DNA of 64,000 bases from Verrucomicrobiota bacterium (GTDB taxonomy: Bacteria > Verrucomicrobiota > Verrucomicrobiia > Limisphaerales > UBA8199), in NCBI GenBank assembly GCA_039806935.1, contig JBDHQH010000002.1, positions 33,872-97,871 of the forward strand, given 5' to 3'. Positions 14,794 to 55,449 of this stretch are shown in pieces (the stretch's first letter is position 1; each line of letters begins with the position of its first letter). The translations under genes and the position numbers were made by a program. The notes under the pieces were generated by a model. It made no database searches and was not told where the DNA came from. It worked only from the letters and a program-made list of their open reading frames with translations.

Positions 14794-16248
14794 ATGCGAA
14801 CCGTCGTTTTATGGGTCGCGCTGCTGATGGCGACAGGACTGAGTCAGCCGGTGGTGGCGGCGGAAGCCACGCTGGTTCCGGAGCGCACCGTTGAGGAACG
14901 GCTGGATGATCTGGAGGCCTACTTTCACAACGCTCCCCGTCATGCCGACCCGAGCGCGACCAGCCGGATTTTCGTCGCCGGCCCCGGGCATAACAGTTGG
15001 ATGATGACTGCGTCCGGCCTGGTGCTTTTCATGACCCTGCCCGGACTCGCGCTGTTTTATGGCGGTCTGGTGCGGCGGAAAAATGTTTTGTCCGTTCTGG
15101 CCCAATGTTTGGGCATTGCCGGGCTGGTCACCATCCTTTGGTGGGCGGTGGGCTATAGCATCGCTTTTCATCCGGGCCGTCCCGCCTGGGGATCACTGGC
15201 GTGGGCATTTCTCGGGCATGTGGGCGGCGCGCCGAACCCTGATTACGGAGCGTGGGTTTCGCAGAGCGTGTTTGCCATGTACCAGCTTATGTTCGCGATC
15301 ATTACCCCGGCCTTGATCGTCGGGTCGGTCGCTGAACGGATGAAGTTTTCGGCCCTGCTGTTATTCATCACTCTCTGGATGTTTGTGGTGTATTTTCCAC
15401 TGGCGCACATGGTGTGGGGGGTGGATGGGCTGATGAACGGCGCGGGCAACGCCCACGCGAGGATCAAGGCAATTGATTTCGCGGGGGGCACGGTGGTTCA
15501 CATGTCCTCGGGGTGGTCGGCGTTGATTCTCTGCCTGCTGCTGGGCAAGCGCCTCGGCTTTGGGCGGGAGCCGATGCGCCCGCACAACATGGTGCTCTGC
15601 ATGGTGGGCACGGGCATGCTTTGGGTGGGTTGGTATGGTTTCAACGCCGGCAGCGCCATGGCGGCTGATGGGATTGCCGCCAACGCGTTCATGACCACCA
15701 CGCTGGCCGCCGCCACGGGCTCGATTGTTTGGGCGCTGGCGGAATACGCTTTCCGTGGCAAGCCCAGCACGCTGGGATTTTGCTCGGGGGCGGTGGCAGG
15801 TCTGGTAACCATTACGCCGGCCTGCGGGTTTGTCACTGCCAATGGCGCCATGGCAATTGGTGTCGCGGCGGGCCTGGTGCCCTTTTTTGCCTGCTGGAAG
15901 CTCAAGAACTGGATTGGTTATGATGACGCTCTGGATACGTTCGGGATTCATGCAATTGGCGGGACTCTGGGCGCGCTCCTGACGGGATGCCTGGCGCGGA
16001 CGACGGCAAACCCAAATCTCGAGTTGAACCTCAGGGCTTATGTCACCAATTCCTTTTTCCAACCGCTGGTGCTGGAGCAGCTCAAGGCGATTGCGCTCAC
16101 CTTGCTGCTGGCGACCCTTTCCACGGCTATCCTGGCGATGCTCGTCCGCGCCTTCGTTGGCTTGCGGGTTTCGGCGGAGGTGGAGACTTCGGGCCTGGAT
16201 CTGGCTGAGCACGGAGAAGAAGGCTATCATGCGCAAGCGCATTTATGA
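14794..16248 (+). CDS. amtB: Ammonium transporter (Amt family)
   Basis: Signal peptide followed by a multi-TM Amt pattern (FAGGTVVHMSSGWSAL, WVGWYGFNAGSA, DDALDTFGIHAIGG). The track ORF opens at TTG 14773; the first ATG is 14794. Confidence 0.92.
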   Translation: MRTVVLWVALLMATGLSQPVVAAEATLVPERTVEERLDDLEAYFHNAPRHADPSATSRIFVAGPGHNSWMMTASGLVLFMTLPGLALFYGGLVRRKNVLSVLAQCLGIAGLVTILWWAVGYSIAFHPGRPAWGSLAWAFLGHVGGAPNPDYGAWVSQSVFAMYQLMFAIITPALIVGSVAERMKFSALLLFITLWMFVVYFPLAHMVWGVDGLMNGAGNAHARIKAIDFAGGTVVHMSSGWSALILCLLLGKRLGFGREPMRPHNMVLCMVGTGMLWVGWYGFNAGSAMAADGIAANAFMTTTLAAATGSIVWALAEYAFRGKPSTLGFCSGAVAGLVTITPACGFVTANGAMAIGVAAGLVPFFACWKLKNWIGYDDALDTFGIHAIGGTLGALLTGCLARTTANPNLELNLRAYVTNSFFQPLVLEQLKAIALTLLLATLSTAILAMLVRAFVGLRVSAEVETSGLDLAEHGEEGYHAQAHL

Positions 16249-16259
16249 TTTCGATCGCC

Positions 16260-16275
16260 GGGCACGTTGTTGGCA
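16260..16275 (+). promoter_or_regulatory. Sigma54 (-24/-12) promoter upstream of glnA
   Basis: GGGCACGTTGTTGGCA. GGCACG is at 16261-66 and the -12 GC at 16273-74, 12 nt from the -24 GG. It lies about 70 nt upstream of ATG 16344. Confidence 0.55.
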
Positions 16276-16324
16276 AGGGGCCGAGAACAGGCCAGGCTGG
16301 ACATTGCTAAAACAAAACATCTGA

Positions 16325-16344
16325 TAGACCCAAATAGACCCAAA
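16325..16344 (+). repeat. Perfect 10-bp tandem duplication TAGACCCAAA x2 abutting the glnA start codon
   Basis: Read directly: ...ctgaTAGACCCAAATAGACCCAAAtg... Confidence 0.9.
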
Positions 16345-17756
16345 TGAACACACCCAAGAGCGTAATCGATCTGGCCAAAAAAACCGGGGCCCGCATGGTC
16401 GATCTCAAATTTGTGGATACCTTCGGCGCCTGGCAGCATTTCAGTTGCCCCATTCGAGAGTTGACGGAGGAGGTTTTTGAAGAGGGCTTCGGCTTTGATG
16501 GCTCGAGCATTCGCGGCTGGAAGAGCGTGGAAGCTTCGGACATGCTGGCGATTCCTGATCCGACGACCGCCTTTCTGGATCCGTTCTGCGCCGAGCCCAC
16601 GCTGTCCCTGACCTGTGCGATCGCGGAAACCGGCGCGAAAGTGGCCTATATCCGGGATCCCCGCGGAATCGCGCAGAAGGCGGAGAGATATCTGGCCGGC
16701 ACCGGCCAGGCGGACACGGCTTATTTCGGCCCGGAAGCCGAATTCTTCGTGTTCGACAATGTCCAGTACGACAACAAGAGCAACGGCGCGTTTTACAGTG
16801 TCGAATCCGAGGAGGGAATCTGGAACAGCGGACGCGAGGAAATGCCAAATCTTGGCTACAAGATTCGGCACAAGGAGGGCTACTTTCCCGTCGCTCCGAC
16901 GGATCAGCAACAGGATCTGCGCACCGAGATGAGCCTGGTGATGGAGCGCCTCGGTCTGGTCATCGAGCGCCAACACCACGAGGTGGCGACGGCCGGGCAG
17001 GCGGAAATTGATTATCGCTATGACACGCTCGTCAGGGCGGCGGATGCCATGATGGTGTTCAAATATGTGGTCAAGAACGTCGCTCGCCGCCACGGCAAAA
17101 CGGCCTGTTTCATGCCCAAGCCGCTTTTCGGCGACAATGGCTCCGGCATGCACACGCACATCAGCTTGTGGAAAAAGGGCAAGCCGCTATTCGCGGGAAA
17201 CGAGTACGCCGGCCTTTCCCGGATGGCGTTGTATTTTATCGGCGGGCTGCTGAAACATGCCCGGGCGCTGTGCGCAATCTGCAATCCCACAACGAACAGC
17301 TACAAGCGGCTTGTGCCGGGCTACGAAGCGCCGGTGAACCTCGCGTATTCCGGGCGGAATCGCTCGGCGGCGGTGCGCATTCCGATGTACAGCGAGAATC
17401 CGAAATCCAAGCGTATCGAGTACCGCCCGCCCGATCCGGCCGCGAATCCGTACTTGGCGTTCGCCGCGCTTTTGATGGCGGGCCTGGACGGAGTGCTGAA
17501 CAAAATCGATCCCGGCGAGCCGCTGGACAAAAACATCTACGAATTGCCGCCCGAAGAGCTGAAGAAAGTGCCGAGTGCCGCCGGCAGCCTGGCCGAGGCG
17601 CTCGATGCGCTCGAAAAGGACCATGAGTTTCTGCTCAAGGGCGACGTCTTCACCATGGACTTTCTCGACATGTGGATGGCGAGCAAGCGCAAAGAGCAGG
17701 ACGCCCTGCGGTTGCGGCCGCATCCCTACGAGTTCTTCCTCTACTATGATGTTTGA
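16344..17756 (+). CDS. glnA: Glutamine synthetase type I
   Basis: 470 aa. The N-terminal beta-grasp ([23 protein letters not shown]) and the catalytic region ([35 protein letters not shown]) are classic GSI motifs. Confidence 0.95.
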
Positions 17757-46608: not shown

Positions 46609-48813
46609 TCAAGGGGAACGGAACGCGAAAGTCCAGCCGTGGCTGTCCTGGCCGGCGAGCGACGATCCATCTACCGCCAGCGTGAGAGTGTCCCGCCCCC
46701 CCTTGAACCAGGGTTCAATCGCGGTGCGCGCGACTCCGTACGTGTTCGGCCGGATATCGAAAACCAAGCTGATCACACCCGCTTCAGGATAAATTTTTCC
46801 GGCGAGTTGGCGGTAGAGCGTCGGGGCGGCGGCGGACTCCAGCCGGGCCTCGAGCGTGTTTGCGCCGGACTCGACCTTCAGCAAGAGCAGGCGCAGTTGA
46901 CTGCGCTGGGACCGAGCGGCGTCCACGGCATCCCCGGAGGCCACCACTCCAGCCCGGAGCAGCGATTGCAACACCTGCTGGCGCATCGCGCCCATTTGGC
47001 GACGTCTCGTGGTCTCTTCAAGGGAAAGAGGCTCGAAACGAAATGTTTGTCCGCGGTAATCACCCATCAGCGTGTCATTTTCCATGTGCAAGGCCAGCGA
47101 CGAAAGTCTCGGCAGGAAGGCTTTCGGAGGAATGCCGGGTGGAACAGAGTCGCGGATCTGCGTCAGGCGGAGGGGCCAGTGGGCCTCGCGATAGCGGTTG
47201 CCGATTAAGGGACCGGCCAATTGGAACTGCCAGGCAGGATGTGAGGGATCCTCGAGCACCGCCTGGACAGGCGATCCCGCATCGGGGACGCCTCCAAACC
47301 GCAACAGTATTTGTTCGCTCCCGGTCGCGCTGGTTTTCACCACTCCCGAGTAGATAGCCGCCGGTTGCAGCGCATCCAACATGGCAAAATAATCAGGGCT
47401 GGCGGCGCGTTTGACGTGTTCGGTTTCCTCGTCCGGCACCCGGGACCACTCGCTGGCCGTCCCCGCGAGACTGCCGATCAACCGTTCCCCTTTCACGGCA
47501 AGCAAAAGATGGATCATCTGCGGGTTGTCCAGCACCGGACCTCCCGAGCGAATTACTTGATCAGAAAGCGAAGTGAGCGCCACCTGAAAGCCCTCGGTGG
47601 CGGAATCGTATTTCCATTCCCCCTCGAATAACCGGCCATCTCCCCAGCCGCCGTCGTTGTGAAACATCGCTTTCAGAGTATGTATGTCAGAGTTGGCGGA
47701 GGATTCGATTATTTCCAGATACACCGGACGGCTCTCCTTGCGCACGGCCACGGTGCTGGTGAAGATCGCGCCCGGGCGGAAAAAGCCGGTAAGCGCCTGC
47801 TCTTCGCTCCGGTGGCCGGCCATCGCTTCCGCGAGGAGCTTTTGGCGCGCCTCTTGAAGTTTCGCCAGCGTCCCGGTTTGCTCGCCCGCGAGGGCGCGCA
47901 ATCGCGCGAGATCTTCAGGGCGTCCGACGTCAAAGGCTTCACCTTCGAGTTGTCCGCGAGGGCGCTGGTCCTGAGGAAAGGCCCCGATCGAGAGATTATC
48001 CAAGCTCACCTGCCAGGAACCACCCCGCCTCACGGCGCGAAGCCCTGCCGAACCGTCAAAGGCCTTGCCGGGGGGCGTGGCTAGCTTGACGAGCGCGATG
48101 CGCGTCAAATCCGGTGGGCGAACCGAAAAGCCGGCGATTTGCAGCAGCCGCGGCCCTTCTTTGGCGCTGAGCAGCTCAGTGATTTGCCGGTTTGCGCCCA
48201 GATCCATTTTCATTTCCTCCTCGAGATACCGGGCAGCGGGAAGCGGAGCGTACAAGGGCTGAATCAACGTGGCGGTGAAGGTGGCAGAGATGCCGGCTAC
48301 ACCCCGATACTGCGGGCCGGCTCGAAAAGAAAGCGATTTCAACGCGAGTCCTCGCTGGGCAAGCGCCGGGGCCAGAGCATTCTCAAGGGCAGAGCGAGGG
48401 AGGGCGGGAGGACGCCGTTGCCAGTGGATGTATGCGGGGATCGCGAGGATCGCCGCCGCGACCACCGCCACCGTTGCCCAGCGGATTACTCGCTGGCGAG
48501 CGGCGGCGGTTTCGGCGGCTTGCTTTTCGTCGCGCAGCCGCTCGAGTCGTGCGCGGAGTTGCGCTCCCTGTTGTTCTCGGAGGCGAAGGTGAGCCAGGGT
48601 CTTTCGTTCCTCGGCCAGCCGGTTTAACGCCCATTGGCAGCGCTGGGCTGCCGGTCGTGAAGCCACCTCGGGCGGCAAGGGAGCCGGGTTGGCGATGGAT
48701 TCGCCGACGCCGGAGTGTCCGAGATGGGCTTCGAGTTCCCGGCGCGCGGTGGTGGCCGCGGTCCACTTGGAGAGGCATGCCCGAAAGAGGATGGGTTCAA
48801 AATCTTTTCCCAT
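46609..48813 (-). CDS. Single-pass membrane protein (734 aa), last gene of the FtsK/WXG-like operon
   Basis: The cytoplasmic N-terminus has a coiled-coil-like stretch (LRLREQQGAQLRARLERLRDEKQAAE). One TM segment, WATVAVVAAAILAIPAYIHW, is encoded at 48421-48480, followed by a C-terminal domain of about 600 aa. No family recognised. Confidence 0.8.
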   Translation of the reverse strand: MGKDFEPILFRACLSKWTAATTARRELEAHLGHSGVGESIANPAPLPPEVASRPAAQRCQWALNRLAEERKTLAHLRLREQQGAQLRARLERLRDEKQAAETAAARQRVIRWATVAVVAAAILAIPAYIHWQRRPPALPRSALENALAPALAQRGLALKSLSFRAGPQYRGVAGISATFTATLIQPLYAPLPAARYLEEEMKMDLGANRQITELLSAKEGPRLLQIAGFSVRPPDLTRIALVKLATPPGKAFDGSAGLRAVRRGGSWQVSLDNLSIGAFPQDQRPRGQLEGEAFDVGRPEDLARLRALAGEQTGTLAKLQEARQKLLAEAMAGHRSEEQALTGFFRPGAIFTSTVAVRKESRPVYLEIIESSANSDIHTLKAMFHNDGGWGDGRLFEGEWKYDSATEGFQVALTSLSDQVIRSGGPVLDNPQMIHLLLAVKGERLIGSLAGTASEWSRVPDEETEHVKRAASPDYFAMLDALQPAAIYSGVVKTSATGSEQILLRFGGVPDAGSPVQAVLEDPSHPAWQFQLAGPLIGNRYREAHWPLRLTQIRDSVPPGIPPKAFLPRLSSLALHMENDTLMGDYRGQTFRFEPLSLEETTRRRQMGAMRQQVLQSLLRAGVVASGDAVDAARSQRSQLRLLLLKVESGANTLEARLESAAAPTLYRQLAGKIYPEAGVISLVFDIRPNTYGVARTAIEPWFKGGRDTLTLAVDGSSLAGQDSHGWTFAFRSP

Positions 48814-48829
48814 AAACGAAATTGTGGTG

Positions 48830-49237
48830 TCAGTCGCTTCCGGCGGCGGTCGCCTGGGCGATCAGGCCTCTCACGCCCGCGGCTAGATGATCGGTTTGAT
48901 CCGCCTGGGCCAAGGCGGTTGACGCTTCGCGGAGCGCGGCCTGGGCGCTCTGGTCGGACGCGGCGGCATTCCGCGCGGCTTCGGCGGATTCAGCGGCGCA
49001 CTGGCGGTGCTTCTCTTCCGCAAGCAGGCCTGCCTGCGCCGCCGATGCCAATTCGCGGTGCTGGGCTGCCACGGCGGCCAGGACCGTGGATTCCGCCGCG
49101 GCTCGAGGCTGAAGAAATTTTTGTTCCGCGGCGCGCGCGTTGGCGTCCCGCCAGAGGATCCGGGCCTCGGCCAGGACGTCCGCCAGCGAGCGGGCTTGCC
49201 GCTCGAGCGCCCAAAGCAGATCTTCCCGTTCACTCAT
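48830..49237 (-). CDS. Ala-rich helical protein (135 aa) with a W-R-D motif
   Basis: ATGA overlap with the upstream gene. ILWRDANARAAEQKF at residues 27-41. Composition predicts an all-helical protein. Confidence 0.7.
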   Translation of the reverse strand: MSEREDLLWALERQARSLADVLAEARILWRDANARAAEQKFLQPRAAAESTVLAAVAAQHRELASAAQAGLLAEEKHRQCAAESAEAARNAAASDQSAQAALREASTALAQADQTDHLAAGVRGLIAQATAAGSD

Positions 49238-50187
49238 GGCAAAACCCCCGGGCGGTTGAGTTCTTGCAAGGCTTCGATGGCGCGATCGATTTCTCCGCGT
49301 CCGGTGTCTTCGTAAATGGTGATTTCCGAAGCTGAATGTTCAGCCAGCCGGAGCTGGGCGGCCGCGTCTCTGATGCGGATGCCCGCAAGCTGAGCGGCTC
49401 CCGTTAGTTCCTCACTCGCGGAGTGTTCGCGATTCACTGCCGCGCGGGCCTCGTTGGATGCCTGTCGCGCCGCCGCGGCCAGGCGCAGTGCGCCATGCGC
49501 GGCGCTCACGGCGGCATGGCCGGACGCCACTGCGCGAGTGGCGGCCCCCAGCGCCGCTTCGGCATGTTCCACCGCGTGGGAACAGGCGGCCACTCGAGAC
49601 TCGGCGCGGCTGACTTCCCGTCGCGCGGTCTCGACTTGTCCTCGAGCCGCAGTCACGGCGCGTTCGGCGCTGGCCAGGGCGGCATACAGACTCGAGCAGT
49701 CACGCGCCGGGCCGTTCGGGTCGCGTGGCGCGGAGGCGCACGCGCGATACGCGCTGGCGGCGGCGGCGCAACGCCGTTCACATTCCGCAAGCACGCTCAG
49801 GGCAGCGGCCAAATCGCGCCGCGCGGTTTCGAGCCTCTCGCGGGCCTTTGCCAGATTGCCTCGCCAGAGCGCCACGGCCGCGTGGGCCTCCCGCAAGGCT
49901 GCTTGCGCATTGGCCAGTGCCTGGCCGCCACGCTCCTGGCTTCGCCGCGCGGAGGCTTCAGCCTGGCCGGCGAGATGCTCCGCTTCCCGGACGCGCCGTT
50001 CGTCTTCTCGCGCAGCCTCCGTCGCCAGAGCGGCCAGGCCCTGGACTCGGCGGGCGTGCTCCTCGGAGTGCCATTGCTCGCGGGCAGTGTCCTCCATTCC
50101 TGAACGCAGCACGGAACCACTGCGCCGAAGCTCGTAAGCCACGGATTCCAAAGCGTTGATTAAGGCGGTGGGATTATGCTGGGTCAT
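49234..50187 (-). CDS. Ala-rich long helical-hairpin protein (317 aa) with a canonical W-x-G motif
   Basis: 4-nt overlaps at both ends. ALWRGNLAKA (W108-R-G110, encoded at 49858-49866). Central Cys/Pro turn ECERRCAAAASAYRACASAPRDPNGPARDC. Confidence 0.75.
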   Translation of the reverse strand: MTQHNPTALINALESVAYELRRSGSVLRSGMEDTAREQWHSEEHARRVQGLAALATEAAREDERRVREAEHLAGQAEASARRSQERGGQALANAQAALREAHAAVALWRGNLAKARERLETARRDLAAALSVLAECERRCAAAASAYRACASAPRDPNGPARDCSSLYAALASAERAVTAARGQVETARREVSRAESRVAACSHAVEHAEAALGAATRAVASGHAAVSAAHGALRLAAAARQASNEARAAVNREHSASEELTGAAQLAGIRIRDAAAQLRLAEHSASEITIYEDTGRGEIDRAIEALQELNRPGVLP

Positions 50188-50477
50188 GGCAAGTCCGGAT
50201 GGGTGCGATTAGCCTCCCGTAAAGCGTCGAGGCGTTGACCAAGCAATGGGCGCAGACGCTCGATGGCGCCGAGGTAATCCTCGAACAGGCGCTCGGTGCG
50301 GAGCCACCCGGCGCGGAACTGTTCCGCCGCCTCGCCCTCGTAAACCTCGGAAAGCGCCCGCCAGGAGCTTTGTAGTGGCGGCAATTCCGATCGCAAAAGG
50401 CCAGTCTGCCGGGTGAGAGCCGCCTGATAATCCTCCAACGCCGCCGCCAGATATTTCAGATTTTCGGCCGTGCTCAT
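50184..50477 (-). CDS. WXG100-like small helical hairpin protein (97 aa, Y-E-G variant)
   Basis: The length and the central motif EVYEGEAAEQFRAGW (residues 44-58) mirror the ESAT-6-type pattern W-x-G-x4-A-[YF]. It immediately follows a second small helical protein. Confidence 0.7.
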   Translation of the reverse strand: MSTAENLKYLAAALEDYQAALTRQTGLLRSELPPLQSSWRALSEVYEGEAAEQFRAGWLRTERLFEDYLGAIERLRPLLGQRLDALREANRTHPDLP

Positions 50478-50480
50478 GAT

Positions 50481-50753
50481 TTAGGAACCAAGGAGATACC
50501 GGCGCAGGGCGGCGGATTTTTCGCGCAGAAAAAGTTCGAACGCGGGCGCTTCGCGCGCGCGGTACCGTTCCAACTGCTGGGCGAGTGGCTGATAAAGAGC
50601 GTCATAATCGCGCCGGAAAGAATCCTTCCAAAGCGGCGCCAGCCGGTCATGCGCCGACGCCAGTTCGCGGGCGGCGATGCTGAGCCGCTCGTGAAAGGCG
50701 CGTAAATCCCGGTGGAAACGCTCGAGGCGGGCCAATTGATCGTCCATGCTCAT
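50481..50753 (-). CDS. WXG100-like small helical hairpin protein (90 aa, W-K-D variant)
   Basis: Central motif PLWKDSFRRDY (W42). Its start overlaps the ATPase stop by 4 nt. It is predicted all-helical. Confidence 0.65.
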   Translation of the reverse strand: MSMDDQLARLERFHRDLRAFHERLSIAARELASAHDRLAPLWKDSFRRDYDALYQPLAQQLERYRAREAPAFELFLREKSAALRRYLLGS

Positions 50754-53700
50754 GTGGAGTGGGCGGACCGGCGGGCGAGGATTTGCGCGAGCGCCGGCAA
50801 CTCGGCCAGCGCGCCGTGGTTCGAGTCATCGCCACTTTCCAGTCGCGCGGCTACCGGCGGTTTGAAACGGACCAGACTCCCGGTATCCGCGTTGAAAATG
50901 AGAGCGCAGATGGGAAGATCGCCATCCGCTTGCAAGGTGGCCGCCACACGTTTGCCGGTCAGATCACCGGATTCGTCCTCGGGCATTTGCAAAAGCAGAC
51001 GGTGGTCAAAATGGGAGACACCTTTGCGCAGGTCAATGAGCGCGCAGAGCGCCCGGCCGCTTCCAGTGCTCAGAATCACATGAATGCCGAGCGCCGGCCC
51101 CTCGGTAAACAACCGGCGGAGCCTTGCGCCGGCGGGCGATTCGATGGGGGTTCCGTAAGGATCCGGTTGGCGCGCCAGGCTCTCGAATCGTTCGGGCTCC
51201 AGCAGGACAACAAAGAGACTGGGGCAGGCGCCGCGAGCCAGGTCGTCGAGGCCTTTCCGAGTGTCGAGTTCCGTCTCCAACTCCCGCAACACGGCTTCGA
51301 CCTCGCCGGGGTCGGTTACCACCCGACAAGCAGAGCGTGTGCTCCTCGCGACGTGTTCGTTCCAGGCGGGGGCCACCCGCGCCCAGGGCGAGCCGCGCGG
51401 TGTGCGATCCAGCAAAACAAAACGATTGAACCGTCCCTCGAGGTTCAGCGCGAAGCTGGTTAGCACACTCAGCAATAACCCGTGCCGGGCATTCGCGTGG
51501 TTGCCAACGATCAGGAGATTGTCGTGTCGTTTGCGCTTCAGTCTCAGGTCGGCATACCCGCGCACGTTAAATTCCTGGCCGACCCAGGCGATGCGCGGAT
51601 GCTCGGCCGGGTACCATTCAGCAGCGCCCACGCCGCCCTCCGCGAGGGGGCGTTTCACCCAATGCTCGAGCTCTTCTGGTTGGGGCGCGGAGGGGAGCGC
51701 TGCCAAGGCTGCCAGCCGCGGATTATCCAGCAGCTTGGGCTGGGCCAGACCCTCGAAAACCAGCGGCGCGCGCAATTGGGGAAATCGCACGGCGGCGTGC
51801 GCGGCGAGCCCCTCGACCAGGTGTTCGCGCTCGGTCGCTCGGAGCAGCGCGATGATCCCTGAGACATTGAAGCCGTCTTGTCCGCTGCGATCGTTGAGCA
51901 CCACCTTGCCGGGGCCGTCCAGGGCATTGATGGCCTCTTTGCCAGCGCGCTGGAACTCGGTCAAGGTGGCCACTTCCGCCTGGGCAATTTTCATCGCGAC
52001 ACGCAGCGCAATCTGGCTGAAGATCTCGTCCCGGCGCAGCATGCCGCTGGCTCCGAAGCGCTGGGAAGCCAGCAGCATGTGCAGGCCGGCGCTGCGCCCC
52101 TGGGCGCCCAGCAGCGCCAGATATTTCGAGGCTTCTCCCTCCCGATCGCCTTCGAACAACTCCTGATATTCATCGACCACCAGCACCAATCGGGGCAGGG
52201 GAGGCAAATCCGGCTGAGCTTGCCGCAGCCGCGCGTAATCCTTGAAGCCGGACACCTGATATTTGCGGAAGATCCCGTTGCGCCGCTCCATTTCCTGCGC
52301 CAGATCCGCCAGCAAGCTGCGAGCGAGTTGCGGCGAGGTGTTCAAGGATAACACCTCCGAGTGCGGCAGCCGGCGGTAGGTTCGGAACTCGACTCCATCC
52401 TTGCCGTCCACGAGATAGAATTTCAACTGCTCGGGCGAATAGCGCTGCGCGAGTCCGAGGATGAACACATGGAAGAGATTCGATTTCCCCATGCCGGTGC
52501 CGGCGCCAATCACCCCATGCACACAGGGCTGACCATCCTCGCTTTCCCCAAGCAGAATGCGCAGGGCGTCCTGCTCGCTGCCGCGGGCGCCGACGGGCGT
52601 AACCACCCGTTCCACGGACGACTCCCGCCACCACGCCTCCTCCGGCAGGCCCACCAACCCGGTGAAAGAGAGTTCGGAGCGAATCGCTTCGGCCTGGCTC
52701 AACTTGGTGAGCAAGGCTGATTGCAAAGCCGCCGCCGGGGGCGCATCAAGGGCCAGCCGCCAACCCGCGCCCGCTAATTCCTCGGCCTTGGCCAGCGGGT
52801 ACCAGGCGTGAGGAAAGGCCTTGATGCCGGATTGATCCATGTCGAATCCGCGCGGGAATTCCGCTGTCGTGTCCCAATGGAGCACCAAGTAGGTGCCGCC
52901 CTCCATGCCATTGTTGGCGATGCGGCGCAACAACTCGAGGCTGCGGCTGTCCATTTCAAATCCGCGTGGAAAATCCGCCACCACAACCAATTGCAGCTTT
53001 TCGCGACGCCGTTGGTTGGTTGGAATCTGCTCAAACGAACGGACCGAACCTCCCAAATGGTTGCGAGCCACCCGCACAAAGTTTCGCTCGGCGGATTCCA
53101 GGTCCTGAAAGAGGTCGGTGTTCTCGATGCGGCCCGGCAGGCGATTGGCCCAGCGGAAGGAGTTGCCGCTGTTGTGGGGATCAAGAAAAAGAAATCGCAC
53201 CTGATTGGGTAACGCCAGGGCGATCCGCCAAATCAGGGATTGAATGGCGTCGAGCACCGGCTGGCGGCGGGCGGGCTCGCTGGCCAACACCAGGGTCCGT
53301 TGCTGCCCGACAAATGGCGCCAGGAAGGGGGATGCCGGCCCTGAACCTTGCGCGGCCTGAATTTGGCCGAGGCATAGTGAATCGGGCAAATCGGTGACTC
53401 TCTGTTGCTCGGCCGGGTTGTAGCCGGCCCAGACGGATTCGTTCCAGCCAGGCCGCAAAAGCGGCGGCACGCGGCTCCAGGCGACCCCGCATTCCTTGTC
53501 AGCCGCCTCGGAAACGGCGGCGAATTCTTTCATCGCCCCGCGCCCCTCAAGCAGCGCCCGGGCCGCCAAGACGGGCAGGAGTCGTTCCGTTGCTGATTTT
53601 AGAGCCGCAGTTTCGCCGGCCAAAGCGTCCATTTCAGCCAGCCAGGGCTCGATGCCCCGAGCCTTGCCGCGGGAGCACCGCGCCTCGAGCTCGGTGATGG

Positions 53701-53776
53701 CCGACGGCTCGCCCGCGCAGGCTCGCTCGGCTAACGCTCTCGTCTGGCTTTGTCCCGCTGTGGAAGAATCACCCAT
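50750..53776 (-). CDS. FtsK/SpoIIIE-family ATPase with three P-loop-type modules (EssC/EccC-like architecture), no TM segment
   Basis: Middle module: Walker A GAGTGMGKS (52481-52507), Walker B LVLVVDEYQ, and GRSAGLHMLLASQR (FtsK RAAGIH..ATQRP-like). The flanking modules repeat the fold pattern with degenerate P-loops: LASEPARRQPV...LQLVVVADFPRG, and VGNHANARHG...LFVVLLEPERF...ALGIHVILSTG. ATG 53776 is preferred; the track ORF opens at TTG 53914. Confidence 0.85.
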   Translation of the reverse strand: MGDSSTAGQSQTRALAERACAGEPSAITELEARCSRGKARGIEPWLAEMDALAGETAALKSATERLLPVLAARALLEGRGAMKEFAAVSEAADKECGVAWSRVPPLLRPGWNESVWAGYNPAEQQRVTDLPDSLCLGQIQAAQGSGPASPFLAPFVGQQRTLVLASEPARRQPVLDAIQSLIWRIALALPNQVRFLFLDPHNSGNSFRWANRLPGRIENTDLFQDLESAERNFVRVARNHLGGSVRSFEQIPTNQRRREKLQLVVVADFPRGFEMDSRSLELLRRIANNGMEGGTYLVLHWDTTAEFPRGFDMDQSGIKAFPHAWYPLAKAEELAGAGWRLALDAPPAAALQSALLTKLSQAEAIRSELSFTGLVGLPEEAWWRESSVERVVTPVGARGSEQDALRILLGESEDGQPCVHGVIGAGTGMGKSNLFHVFILGLAQRYSPEQLKFYLVDGKDGVEFRTYRRLPHSEVLSLNTSPQLARSLLADLAQEMERRNGIFRKYQVSGFKDYARLRQAQPDLPPLPRLVLVVDEYQELFEGDREGEASKYLALLGAQGRSAGLHMLLASQRFGASGMLRRDEIFSQIALRVAMKIAQAEVATLTEFQRAGKEAINALDGPGKVVLNDRSGQDGFNVSGIIALLRATEREHLVEGLAAHAAVRFPQLRAPLVFEGLAQPKLLDNPRLAALAALPSAPQPEELEHWVKRPLAEGGVGAAEWYPAEHPRIAWVGQEFNVRGYADLRLKRKRHDNLLIVGNHANARHGLLLSVLTSFALNLEGRFNRFVLLDRTPRGSPWARVAPAWNEHVARSTRSACRVVTDPGEVEAVLRELETELDTRKGLDDLARGACPSLFVVLLEPERFESLARQPDPYGTPIESPAGARLRRLFTEGPALGIHVILSTGSGRALCALIDLRKGVSHFDHRLLLQMPEDESGDLTGKRVAATLQADGDLPICALIFNADTGSLVRFKPPVAARLESGDDSNHGALAELPALAQILARRSAHST

Positions 53777-54360
53777 AAATACAATAGTTCGCCGCTCGAA
53801 GTCCGGTTTGCTGATCGCCCGAGTCGGTCCGCGGGGGTGTGAGCCAGCACCGGGAAACAAAACTGCGCCATCAGTTACGCGCAATACTCTTATACTGGAT
53901 TCTGATCCAGTCAACGGAAGAATGGCGTGACTGGGGCGCCGGCGGGCGCCGCAAACGCTCCGGCGTTGCGTATCGCCGATCTCTGCGATGGCCGGGGGTC
54001 CCGCACCGCCACCGCGCGGGTCAGGCTGAATGAAAACAGGGCTCTGTAGCAGCCGAAGAAAGCAATGCCAACCCCAAGGGGTTCGGGGGAAAGGGAACGG
54101 GGGAGACTGCGATGGGTTGTGCGCCCCACCGAGAAAAACGGAATGTCGAGGGTCAGTTCGAGTTCCCAGCAGGTTCGGATTTTTCCCCCGCCAGCGGAGC
54201 CAATTTGCTTTAAATCCGATTCCAAGGTGTTACTCTGCGTCCTGGGCGGAAGGCGCGGAAGGCGGTTTGTTTCAAAATTGGCTTGAGCTTCCGGGTCTCC
54301 CGCCTTAGATGATCGTGGCAAGCCGCATTCCGCGGCCACGCCCAACGACTGCCCTGAATC

Positions 54361-55449
54361 ATGACTGTTCAAAGCCTGTTTACGACCCCGTCCGCCGGCG
54401 CGCTCGACCTGTTGTCGCTGGGAGCCCTAGTGCATCGGCTGGATCCCGGAGTGATCCCGTTTCGCAAAGCCGCCGCGTGCGAGATCCACGTCAGCGGCGG
54501 TGAGTTTAATGTGGCTGCGAACCTGGCGGACTGTTTTCGGCTGCGCACAGGGATCGTCAGCGCGATGGTGGATTATCCGTTGGGCGACCTGATCGCCGAG
54601 CGGGTGCGAGCCATGGGGGTGCGGCCTTTTTACAAGCACTTTCAGCACGATGGAGTGCGCGGACCCAACATGGCGGCAGTTTACAGCGACCGCGGGCAGG
54701 GCGTACGCGCTCCAGTAGTGTTTTACAACCGGTGCGACGAGGCCGCGGCGCGGTTGAAGCCCGGAGATTTCGATTGGAAGGGAATTTTTAGCGAGGGCGT
54801 CCGGTGGTTCCATAGCGGAGGCATCTTTGCCGCGCTTTCGCCGACGACCGCCGAGTTGATCATCGAAGCCATGCAGGCGGCTCGGCAAGCGGGCGCGGTG
54901 GTTTCCTTCGATTTAAACTACCGGGCCAAGCTTTGGAACAGCTCAGGCGGCCATGAGCGGGCGGTTGCCATCCTCGATCGCATCGTCAGGCAGGTGGATG
55001 TGCTGGTGGGGAACGAGGAGGATTTGCAAATGGGCCTGGGGATTCCGGGGCCTGAGGTGGCGGCCAAATCGAAGCTGGATCCGAGCGCGTTTCTGGCCAT
55101 GATCGGCCAGGTGACCCGGAAGCACCCGCATTTGAAGGTGCTGGCCACTACCCTGCGGGAAGTGCATTCCACCAATCGGCATAGTTGGAGCGCCGTGGCC
55201 TGGATCTGCGGCCGCACCCACGTGGCGCCCACCTGCGAATTGGACGTTCTGGACCGCGTGGGCGGCGGGGATGGATTTGCCTCGGGTTTGTTTTACGGTT
55301 TGTTGCAGGGGTTGCCGGAGGAGGAAGCGGTCAAGCTGGGCTGGGCGCATGGCGCGCTGCTGACCACTTTCCCGGGGGATACCACGATGGCGACGCTGGA
55401 GCAGGTCGCGGCGTTTGCCCAAGGCGGTTCCGCGCGGATTCAACGGTAA
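54361..55449 (+). CDS. PfkB-family sugar kinase (2-dehydro-3-deoxygluconokinase-like)
   Basis: GGEFNVAANLA near the N-terminus, and the C-terminal GGGDGFASGLFYGLL anion-hole motif. Confidence 0.8.
   Translation: MTVQSLFTTPSAGALDLLSLGALVHRLDPGVIPFRKAAACEIHVSGGEFNVAANLADCFRLRTGIVSAMVDYPLGDLIAERVRAMGVRPFYKHFQHDGVRGPNMAAVYSDRGQGVRAPVVFYNRCDEAAARLKPGDFDWKGIFSEGVRWFHSGGIFAALSPTTAELIIEAMQAARQAGAVVSFDLNYRAKLWNSSGGHERAVAILDRIVRQVDVLVGNEEDLQMGLGIPGPEVAAKSKLDPSAFLAMIGQVTRKHPHLKVLATTLREVHSTNRHSWSAVAWICGRTHVAPTCELDVLDRVGGGDGFASGLFYGLLQGLPEEEAVKLGWAHGALLTTFPGDTTMATLEQVAAFAQGGSARIQR

Follow-up and report, generated by a model that had tools for sequence, protein, structure and literature searches.

Introduction

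Reviews and surveys treat type VII secretion as a system of Actinomycetota and Bacillota, and a 2024 survey of variants c to j of type VII secretion systems (T7SS) covers Gram-positive bacteria only. Two earlier descriptions come closest to the locus reported here. Zhang, de Souza, Anantharaman, Iyer and Aravind (2012, Biol Direct 7:18, PMC3482391; Table 1, footnote 6) list 'mobile versions of T7SS', in which solo WXG proteins accompany a distinct three-domain YueA-like ATPase with only its middle HerA/FtsK domain active; the phyla named are verrucomicrobia, planctomycetes, cyanobacteria, bacteroidetes and proteobacteria. The second is HP0062 of Helicobacter pylori (PDB 3FX7 / 2GTS), a helical hairpin of 86 amino acids (aa) that forms an antiparallel four-helix-bundle dimer and carries W-R-D at its bend; it clusters with an FtsK/SpoIIIE protein, its structure dates from 2009, and it has no known function (PMC3397514). 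Here we analyse a six-gene cassette that shares features with both, found in a Verrucomicrobiota bacterium (GTDB order Limisphaerales, UBA8199). The window, i.e., the whole stretch of DNA that was analysed, comprises 64,000 nucleotides (nt) of contig JBDHQH010000002.1 (assembly GCA_039806935.1, positions 33,872 to 97,871 of the forward strand), and coordinates below count from its first letter. In our reading the cassette is probably a compact, horizontally mobile type VII (ESX/Ess)-like protein-export module. The computed support consists of homologies, gene order, motif conservation, domain fusions and a single active P-loop; from these we infer secretion.

Six closely spaced open reading frames (ORFs) on the minus strand at 46609-53914 make up the cassette. 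They are listed here in the order of transcription, with names that give the length of the protein.

50750-53914, minus strand: ATPase ORF, 1054 aa, delimited mechanically with a TTG start at 53914
50481-50753, minus strand: p90, 90 aa, WXG100-superfamily helical hairpin (predicted) with W42-x-D44 at the bend
50184-50477, minus strand: p97, 97 aa, WXG100 family member (putative, by a profile match below the cut-off) with [Y/A/S]46-x-G48
49234-50187, minus strand: p317, 317 aa, long antiparallel helical hairpin (modelled) with an invariant W108
48830-49237, minus strand: p135, 135 aa, helical (modelled), with W29 and D31 invariant and no named family
46609-48813, minus strand: p734, last gene of the operon and its sole membrane protein

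The features by which Zhang et al. recognised mobile T7SS, namely the ATPase layout, the solo WXG neighbours and the occurrence outside Bacillota and Actinomycetota, are all found here: the ATPase has three domains of which the middle one is active, the small proteins are of WXG type, and both the phyletic range and the mobile appearance agree. Unlike in that footnote, the cassette includes a W-x-D second paralogue, a hairpin protein of about 22 nm, the p135 family and a tail-anchored transmembrane (TM) protein, none of which is described there, and the cyanobacterial cassettes hold WXG-nuclease fusions. The likeness to HP0062 lies in the W-x-D-type bend and the FtsK/SpoIIIE neighbour, and HP0062 is the best solved match for both p90 and p97; whereas HP0062 is reported as a homodimer, two diverged paralogues are present here and probably pair with each other.

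With T7SSb the cassette shares a multi-domain FtsK-like ATPase, homologous to YukB, and WXG100 proteins. As in the LXG toxins of T7SSb, a long helical carrier domain occurs with polymorphic C-terminal toxins and adjacent small helical proteins, and the layout recalls LXG-Lap pre-secretion complexes as these are outlined for T7SSb (PMC9600955). Unlike T7SSb, the cassette is without EssA, EssB, EsaA and EsaB/YukD, its ATPase has neither FHA domains nor TM helices, both the first and the last ATPase domains are degenerate rather than one of them, p317 has no LXG match, and the hosts are diderm. T7SSa/ESX provides the closest solved ATPase (EccC) and the precedent of a bicistronic, diverged WXG100 pair (EsxB-EsxA), with YxxxD/E on one partner, here p90, together with a conserved C-terminal segment. 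Unlike T7SSa/ESX, the cassette is without EccB, EccD, EccE and MycP, and a strict W-x-G is present in neither small protein. In p90 the YxxxE lies about 20 residues past the bend and before a G-P break, unlike in EsxB and PE proteins, where YxxxD/E stands at the end of the bundle.

Results

p90 and p97 as a probable WXG100-type pair

The Pfam WXG100 profile (PF06013) matches p97 over positions 2-84 of 86 with 25.0 bits (E-value 2.4e-5; cut-off 27.3), and NCBIfam TIGR03930 matches it with 20.3 bits (4.6e-4; cut-off 44.85). The window's own p90 has no Pfam match. At the level of families, collected from 31 related loci that were recovered through the ATPase, WXG100 is matched by 25 of 34 p97 members (best 1.2e-9) and by 21 of 30 p90 members (best 4.3e-5). 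HP0062 (3fx7) is the top solved match for both family profiles (8.6e-5 for p97, 3e-4 for p90), followed in each case by ESAT-6-like and EsxB chains, and the profile alignment places the W-x-D of p90 on the W-R-D of HP0062. Comparison of the two families with each other by hhalign gives an E-value of 2e-5 and a probability of 77% over 82 columns, with W42-K-D44 on Y46-E-G48. We therefore read p90 and p97 as diverged paralogues of the WXG100 superfamily. Additionally, P0019 is a natural p90-linker-p97 fusion of 203 aa whose two halves are recognised by blastp at 1.4e-16 and 1.2e-22, and a fusion of this kind is classical evidence for a physical interaction, here predicted between p90 and p97. 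Genes for p90 and p97 adjoin a gene for an FtsK/SpoIIIE-family ATPase in all 31 related loci and also on a Deinococcus plasmid (see below).

The preliminary description of this DNA, made from the letters alone, had singled out p90, p97, p317 and p135 as tandem helical proteins, each with a W/Y-x-G/D motif, and had proposed a heterodimeric WXG pair plus two larger substrates or adaptors. The four ORFs are indeed consecutive on the minus strand at the coordinates listed, and the motifs W42-K-D (p90), Y46-E-G (p97), W108-R-G (p317) and W29-R-D (p135) are all present; in p90 and p97, where it had been put at the exact midpoint, the motif is found no more than 3 residues away from it. The helical character also holds, since the structure models of p317 and p135 are all-helical and p90 and p97 match a solved helical hairpin. 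A WXG pair is supported by the Pfam and HP0062 matches, the profile-profile match, the P0019 fusion and the EccC/EssC-like ATPase encoded just upstream, albeit with no literal W-x-G: the p97 family has [YAS]-x-G, never W, and the p90 family has W-x-D, never G in the third place. Both are central, can be aligned to one another and to W-R-D in HP0062, and are best read as variants of W-x-G.

By itself the loose pattern [WY]x[GD] is weak evidence, because it is seen in composition-preserving shuffles of each protein at rates of 38% (p90), 45% (p97), 39% (p317) and 16% (p135), or about 1% jointly; real support comes from conservation across phyla. In the family alignments, p90 keeps W42 and D44 in 29/30 sequences each and P40 in 28/30. 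In p97, G48, A51 and F54 are invariant (34/34 each), and Y46 is found in 24/34, with A or S in the others; [Y/A/S]46-x-G48 followed by A51 and F54 is the counterpart of the W-x-G-x-A-A-x-x-F core. W29 and D31 are the only invariant columns of p135 (22/22 each), and p317 keeps W108 in 20/20 sequences and G110 in 5/20. Conservation of the motif columns, which the preliminary description had proposed to check, thus extends to W42/D44, G48, W29/D31 and W108 and fails at Y46 and G110. On another reading, chance alone would have placed the motifs in unrelated helical hypothetical proteins rich in Ala and Arg, and the genes would have no common function; that reading could draw on the shuffle frequencies and on these two variable positions. 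It is already contradicted by conservation and synteny: across phyla, W or G/D columns of each of the four families show little or no variation, the gene order recurs in more than 25 loci with 4-nt overlaps, natural fusions occur, and the homology to WXG100 and HP0062 is significant. We give this reading almost no credence.

One further element of p90 had been described as a weak resemblance to the T7SS export signal, namely Y-R-A-R-E in the second helix. This underrated it: Y64 is conserved in 28/30 family members and E/D68 in 25/30. The Y64-x-x-x-E68 segment is followed by a G-P break and then by a strongly conserved C-terminal segment (L76, Y86, L87, G89) that ends in R-Y-L-x-G. Such a YxxxD/E export-type motif is present on one partner only, p90.

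Two other arrangements were seen in these families. In P0033 (396 aa) the C-terminal portion of a p97 domain is linked to a hairpin like p317, which may reflect a genuine fusion, a frameshift or truncation of the gene call. Between p90 and p97 of a cyanobacterial locus lies a 170-aa protein of no known family (L008:6584-7096), whose family is also fused N-terminally to a p97 domain in P0022.

An EccC/EssC-like ATPase with one active domain

The ATPase matches Pfam FtsK_SpoIIIE at 1e-29 and, partially, NCBIfam EccCa at 2.6e-38. Its nearest solved chains are EccC (4nh0, 1.7e-38), EccC5 and Bacillus subtilis YukB (3e-24), and FtsK itself is matched at 3e-8. A P-loop map from a 24-sequence alignment, with residues numbered on the 1054-aa ORF, resolves three FtsK-like domains; Walker A (AGTGMGKS, 471-478) and Walker B (LVVDEYQELFE, ~578-585) occur in the middle domain only, and the first and last domains keep degenerate remnants. 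We classify the protein as an EccC/EssC-like ATPase in which only the middle domain is predicted to be catalytic. No full-length homologue was found in the phage collection.

Membership of the FtsK/SpoIIIE family would also suit a DNA-translocation or conjugation module, in which the ATPase pumps DNA like TraB or TcpA and the helical proteins are accessory or structural parts of a mobile element. The plasmid location of the Deinococcus copy, the transposases next to it and the public annotation 'DNA translocase FtsK' point the same way. Against this, the match to FtsK is far weaker than that to EccC, one catalytic domain out of three is the multi-domain layout of T7SS, the partners that stay constant are of WXG100 type, plasmid typing classes the Deinococcus plasmid as non-mobilizable, and neither a relaxase nor an integrase nor a replication gene belongs to the conserved core. 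We regard this explanation as very improbable.

p317 and p135

AlphaFold2 (AF2), run on the single sequence, models p317 as two long helices (6-152 and 165-310) joined by a loop at 153-164 (pLDDT 87.4, pTM 0.60); the hairpin would be about 22 nm long at 1.5 Å per residue. The family alignment has Ala at heptad spacing (A115, 122, 129, 143, 174, 181, 188, 195 and others) and conserved cysteines: C150 and C164 on either side of the loop and an invariant C202, which in the model would face the region of W108. C150 and C164 are lost together in 2/20 sequences, by eye the two from Verrucomicrobia. The W108-R-G of p317 was tried as a WXG-type turn and rejected. Since the model turns at 153-164, W108 falls in mid-helix rather than at a bend, and G110 is not conserved, so the motif as first described does not hold for this protein. 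The idea of a larger substrate or adaptor fares better: in the window this carrier domain occurs bare, at other loci with variable C-terminal domains attached, and the finding of p317 and p97 homologues with variable C-terminal nuclease or GNAT domains makes this role plausible for p317.

The p317 homologues of two verrucomicrobial loci (L017:13339-14997 and L021:13192-14838) are longer by about 220 aa at the N-terminus, where they have an HNH-like motif (EVDH...N...N) missed by Pfam. Both are without C150 and C164 and keep C202, which fits paired cysteines.

p135 follows p317 in 22 related loci. From seven close sequences, a shallow alignment, AF2 models it as one continuous helix (3-133; pLDDT 94.6, pTM 0.48); since P44 is conserved in 19/22 sequences, a one-helix monomer may be too simple. 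The context of the motif, W-x-D-[DEN]-A-A, resembles the WXG100 core.

Candidate membrane partners

In p734 a single TM helix (109-127) precedes some 600 residues without a recognised fold; the protein has no internal repeats and no match in Pfam, NCBIfam, PADLOC or PDB. A homologue of 738 aa with 50% identity occupies the same operon position in GCA_044224905.1, and the protein is absent from the 31 cross-phylum loci, i.e., it is lineage-specific. At 20 of those loci the cassette is accompanied by a tail-anchored protein (about 125 aa, its TM helix C-terminal), encoded either before the ATPase or after p135; the window has no such gene. In Marinifilum and two Verrucomicrobia it is instead the ATPase that is extended N-terminally, by a stretch that contains a hydrophobic segment. 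By eye the extension in L017 has two adjacent hydrophobic stretches, and that in L021 gives an hhalign E-value of 3e-4 and a probability of 38% against the tail-anchored family. The N-terminus of p734 was also considered as a homologue of the tail-anchored protein and rejected (hmmsearch marginal, hhalign probability 1.6%).

These membrane partners and the length of p317 could be combined differently, as a minimal self-sufficient exporter of diderm bacteria with a mechanism apart from T7SSa and T7SSb. Here the ATPase, soluble and active in one domain only, would be brought to the inner membrane by the tail-anchored partner or p734, and p317 would be more than cargo, namely a carrier or conduit spanning the periplasm: its Ala-zipper hairpin of some 22 nm is about the width of the periplasm and could take WXG partners and fused toxins toward the outer membrane, and the Cys pair at its tip could form a disulfide once outside the cytoplasm. 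We consider this version of export quite unlikely.

Spread of the cassette and effector fusions

The order ATPase-p90-p97-p317-p135 is found in Pyrinomonadaceae, Blastocatellia, many cyanobacteria, Anaerolineae, Caldilineae, Marinifilum, Chitinophagaceae, Saprospiraceae, Verrucomicrobiae and a Ghiorsea metagenome-assembled genome. Phyla with the conserved order include Acidobacteriota, Cyanobacteria, Chloroflexota, Bacteroidota and Verrucomicrobiota; the cassette as such was found in at least 8 bacterial phyla, mostly diderm, with ATPase identities of 29-45% across the related loci. A plasmid of Deinococcus actinosclerus carries the same cassette beside IS701 and IS4 transposases; the annotation of the cassette reads just 'DNA translocase FtsK' and 'hypothetical protein'. 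GCA_044224905.1, from a close relative of the organism of the window, has the same six genes with other flanking genes. We read the cassette as horizontally mobile, with no relaxase, integrase or replication gene in its conserved core.

Enzymatic domains are attached to the cassette at some of these loci. Cyanobacterial cassettes have an additional p97-type domain that makes up the N-terminus of nuclease fusions, with Tox-REase-2 (1e-9) or AHH (1.6e-14, 4.7e-14) as the nuclease. A search with p97 among 1.84 billion representative proteins returned 145 clusters, 123 of them of at most 110 aa and 20 longer than 200 aa. The long proteins inspected mostly have a C-terminal extension, and two have the p97 domain at the C-terminus; the fusions include AHH-type and, by eye, NucA/EssD-like, GIY-YIG-like, GNAT and unknown C-terminal domains. 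Homologues of p317 carry a C-terminal GNAT domain in L005, L007, L008 and L016, and in L010 the C-terminal region weakly resembles a CdiA-CT RNase A-like domain. Behind the REase fusion of L007 stands an ORF of 125 aa with no likeness to p135, a candidate immunity gene. These fusions give the cassette an architecture like that of polymorphic toxins, which we count in favour of export. Most cassettes, the window's included, have no enzymatic effector.

The distribution and the fusions also bear on an alternative in which nothing is secreted and the cassette is an intracellular anti-phage or anti-plasmid conflict system, the ATPase sensing or acting on invading DNA or protein and the helical adaptors holding or activating effectors. 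The cassette is patchy across phyla and adjoined by insertion sequence (IS) elements, toxin-antitoxin genes and a methylase; effector domains are exchanged on a constant adaptor, as in many defence systems, and the ATPase is soluble in most loci. Directly after the nuclease fusion of L008, L016 and L030 comes p135, and no immunity gene is evident there; this arrangement suits effectors that act inside the cell no less than secreted ones. PADLOC matches the active ATPase domain with FtsK-domain models (SspH, mad8), but these matches reflect the generic P-loop only, and the other five operon proteins match no PADLOC defence model. The ATPase is moreover much nearer to EccC/EssC than to DNA translocases, most cassettes have no enzymatic effector, a conserved membrane-anchored partner goes with the cassette, and L007 has its candidate immunity ORF after a toxin fusion. 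To our knowledge, WXG100 proteins are known solely as substrates or co-substrates of T7SS, which also argues against a conflict system. On balance we consider this alternative rather unlikely, and retain protein export as the probable function.

Several neighbours of related cassettes deserve mention. Just after the cyanobacterial cassette of L030, whose p97-AHH fusion has an in-frame stop, lies a standalone Tse2-type ADP-ribosyltransferase toxin (16083-16574; 1.4e-14), followed by a 177-aa ORF without known family, a MazF toxin, an IS1 transposase fragment and a DNA methylase. In Chloroflexota a P-loop protein of about 890 aa, HerA/DUF87-like with a weak FtsK match, is encoded a few genes downstream of the cassette (L006:7897-10566, L009:16398-19085); the equivalent place is taken by a 1217-aa TPR-CHAT protein in L001 and by an SNF2/PLD helicase in L016. 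The p97 fusions P0092, P0117 and P0120 have in common a C-terminal domain of some 280 aa that carries no annotation; it has conserved motifs such as GEEYGH...FPQGFDGVYFD...EFKGQ and may be an undescribed toxin domain.

Operon structure and boundaries

The ATPase/p90, p97/p317 and p317/p135 junctions are 4-nt overlaps and the other two are gaps of 3 and 16 nt; because of this spacing, we treat the six genes as one operon with probable translational coupling. The upstream neighbour is divergent and the downstream neighbour convergent. The first 46 codons of the 1054-aa ORF (53777-53914) are without the codon-position GC pattern of the other genes, and the gene of the relative encodes 1009 aa, so the true start of the ATPase is probably the ATG at 53776, giving about 1008 aa. 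A 153-aa ORF upstream of the ATPase (53911-54372, minus strand) with a hydrophobic stretch was rejected as a gene, since coding periodicity is missing and the small TM family does not match it. A promoter and terminator scan returned nothing exceeding background.

Discussion

Taken as an export module, the cassette could work as follows. p90 and p97 would form an EsxB/EsxA-like four-helix-bundle heterodimer, with recognition elements on p90 consisting of Y64-x-x-x-E/D and the conserved C-terminal segment ending in R-Y-L-x-G. These elements would bind to the ATPase, with the degenerate C-terminal domain as the probable site, by analogy with the tail of EsxB, which binds the last ATPase domain (D3) of EccC. 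p317, in the company of the small helical proteins, would serve as carrier or substrate in the manner of LXG proteins, and in other genomes p317 or p97 would deliver a C-terminal nuclease or GNAT domain. The ATPase would power export at the inner membrane, anchored there by a membrane partner: p734 in this bacterium, and elsewhere the tail-anchored protein of about 125 aa or the N-terminal membrane extension of the ATPase.

A number of observations weigh against export. The hosts are diderm, and passage through the outer membrane is unexplained by the genes of the cassette. Canonical T7SS membrane parts (EccB, EccD, EccE, MycP, EssA, EssB, EsaA, YukD) are absent from the Pfam and NCBIfam matches of the six operon proteins, the canonical membrane core was not seen among the called genes of the related loci either, and the ATPase of the window has no TM or hydrophobic segment, unlike EccC and EssC. 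The window's own copy has no enzymatic effector domain, and the nuclease fusions of L008, L016 and L030 come without an obvious immunity gene. For p317, Foldseek finds only generic long hairpins and coiled coils (the chemoreceptor cytoplasmic domain at a TM-score of 0.73, SMC/MukB arms), which are uninformative on function, and no Pfam family recurs in the 20 family members, with LXG (PF04740) not among the listed matches; its similarity to WXG100 is not significant. p135 was rejected as a WXG100 protein: its model, though from a shallow alignment, is a single helix, and hhalign against the p90 and p97 families gives a non-significant probability of 3-4%. The p135 family has no consistent Pfam match either (LXG in 2/22 members, at 0.0035). 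Both models are to be read as predictions from one sequence (p317) or seven close ones (p135). Finally, we found no experimental evidence of secretion for any member of the cassette family.

This kind of cassette was noted computationally in 2012, and we found no experimental study of it in diderm or Gram-negative phyla. As far as we found, the p317 hairpin family, the p135 W-x-D family, the tail-anchored partner, the p90-p97 fusion and the toxin fusions in cyanobacterial cassettes had not been described. The analysis defines four protein families with invariant residues, two of them without a Pfam model. If the cassette exports proteins, it would be the smallest T7SS-like apparatus known, and how WXG-type substrates and nuclease toxins pass two membranes would become a question; it would also offer a defined five- or six-gene unit transferable to a model organism. 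If instead it is an intracellular conflict system, the WXG100 fold would gain a new, non-secretory role.

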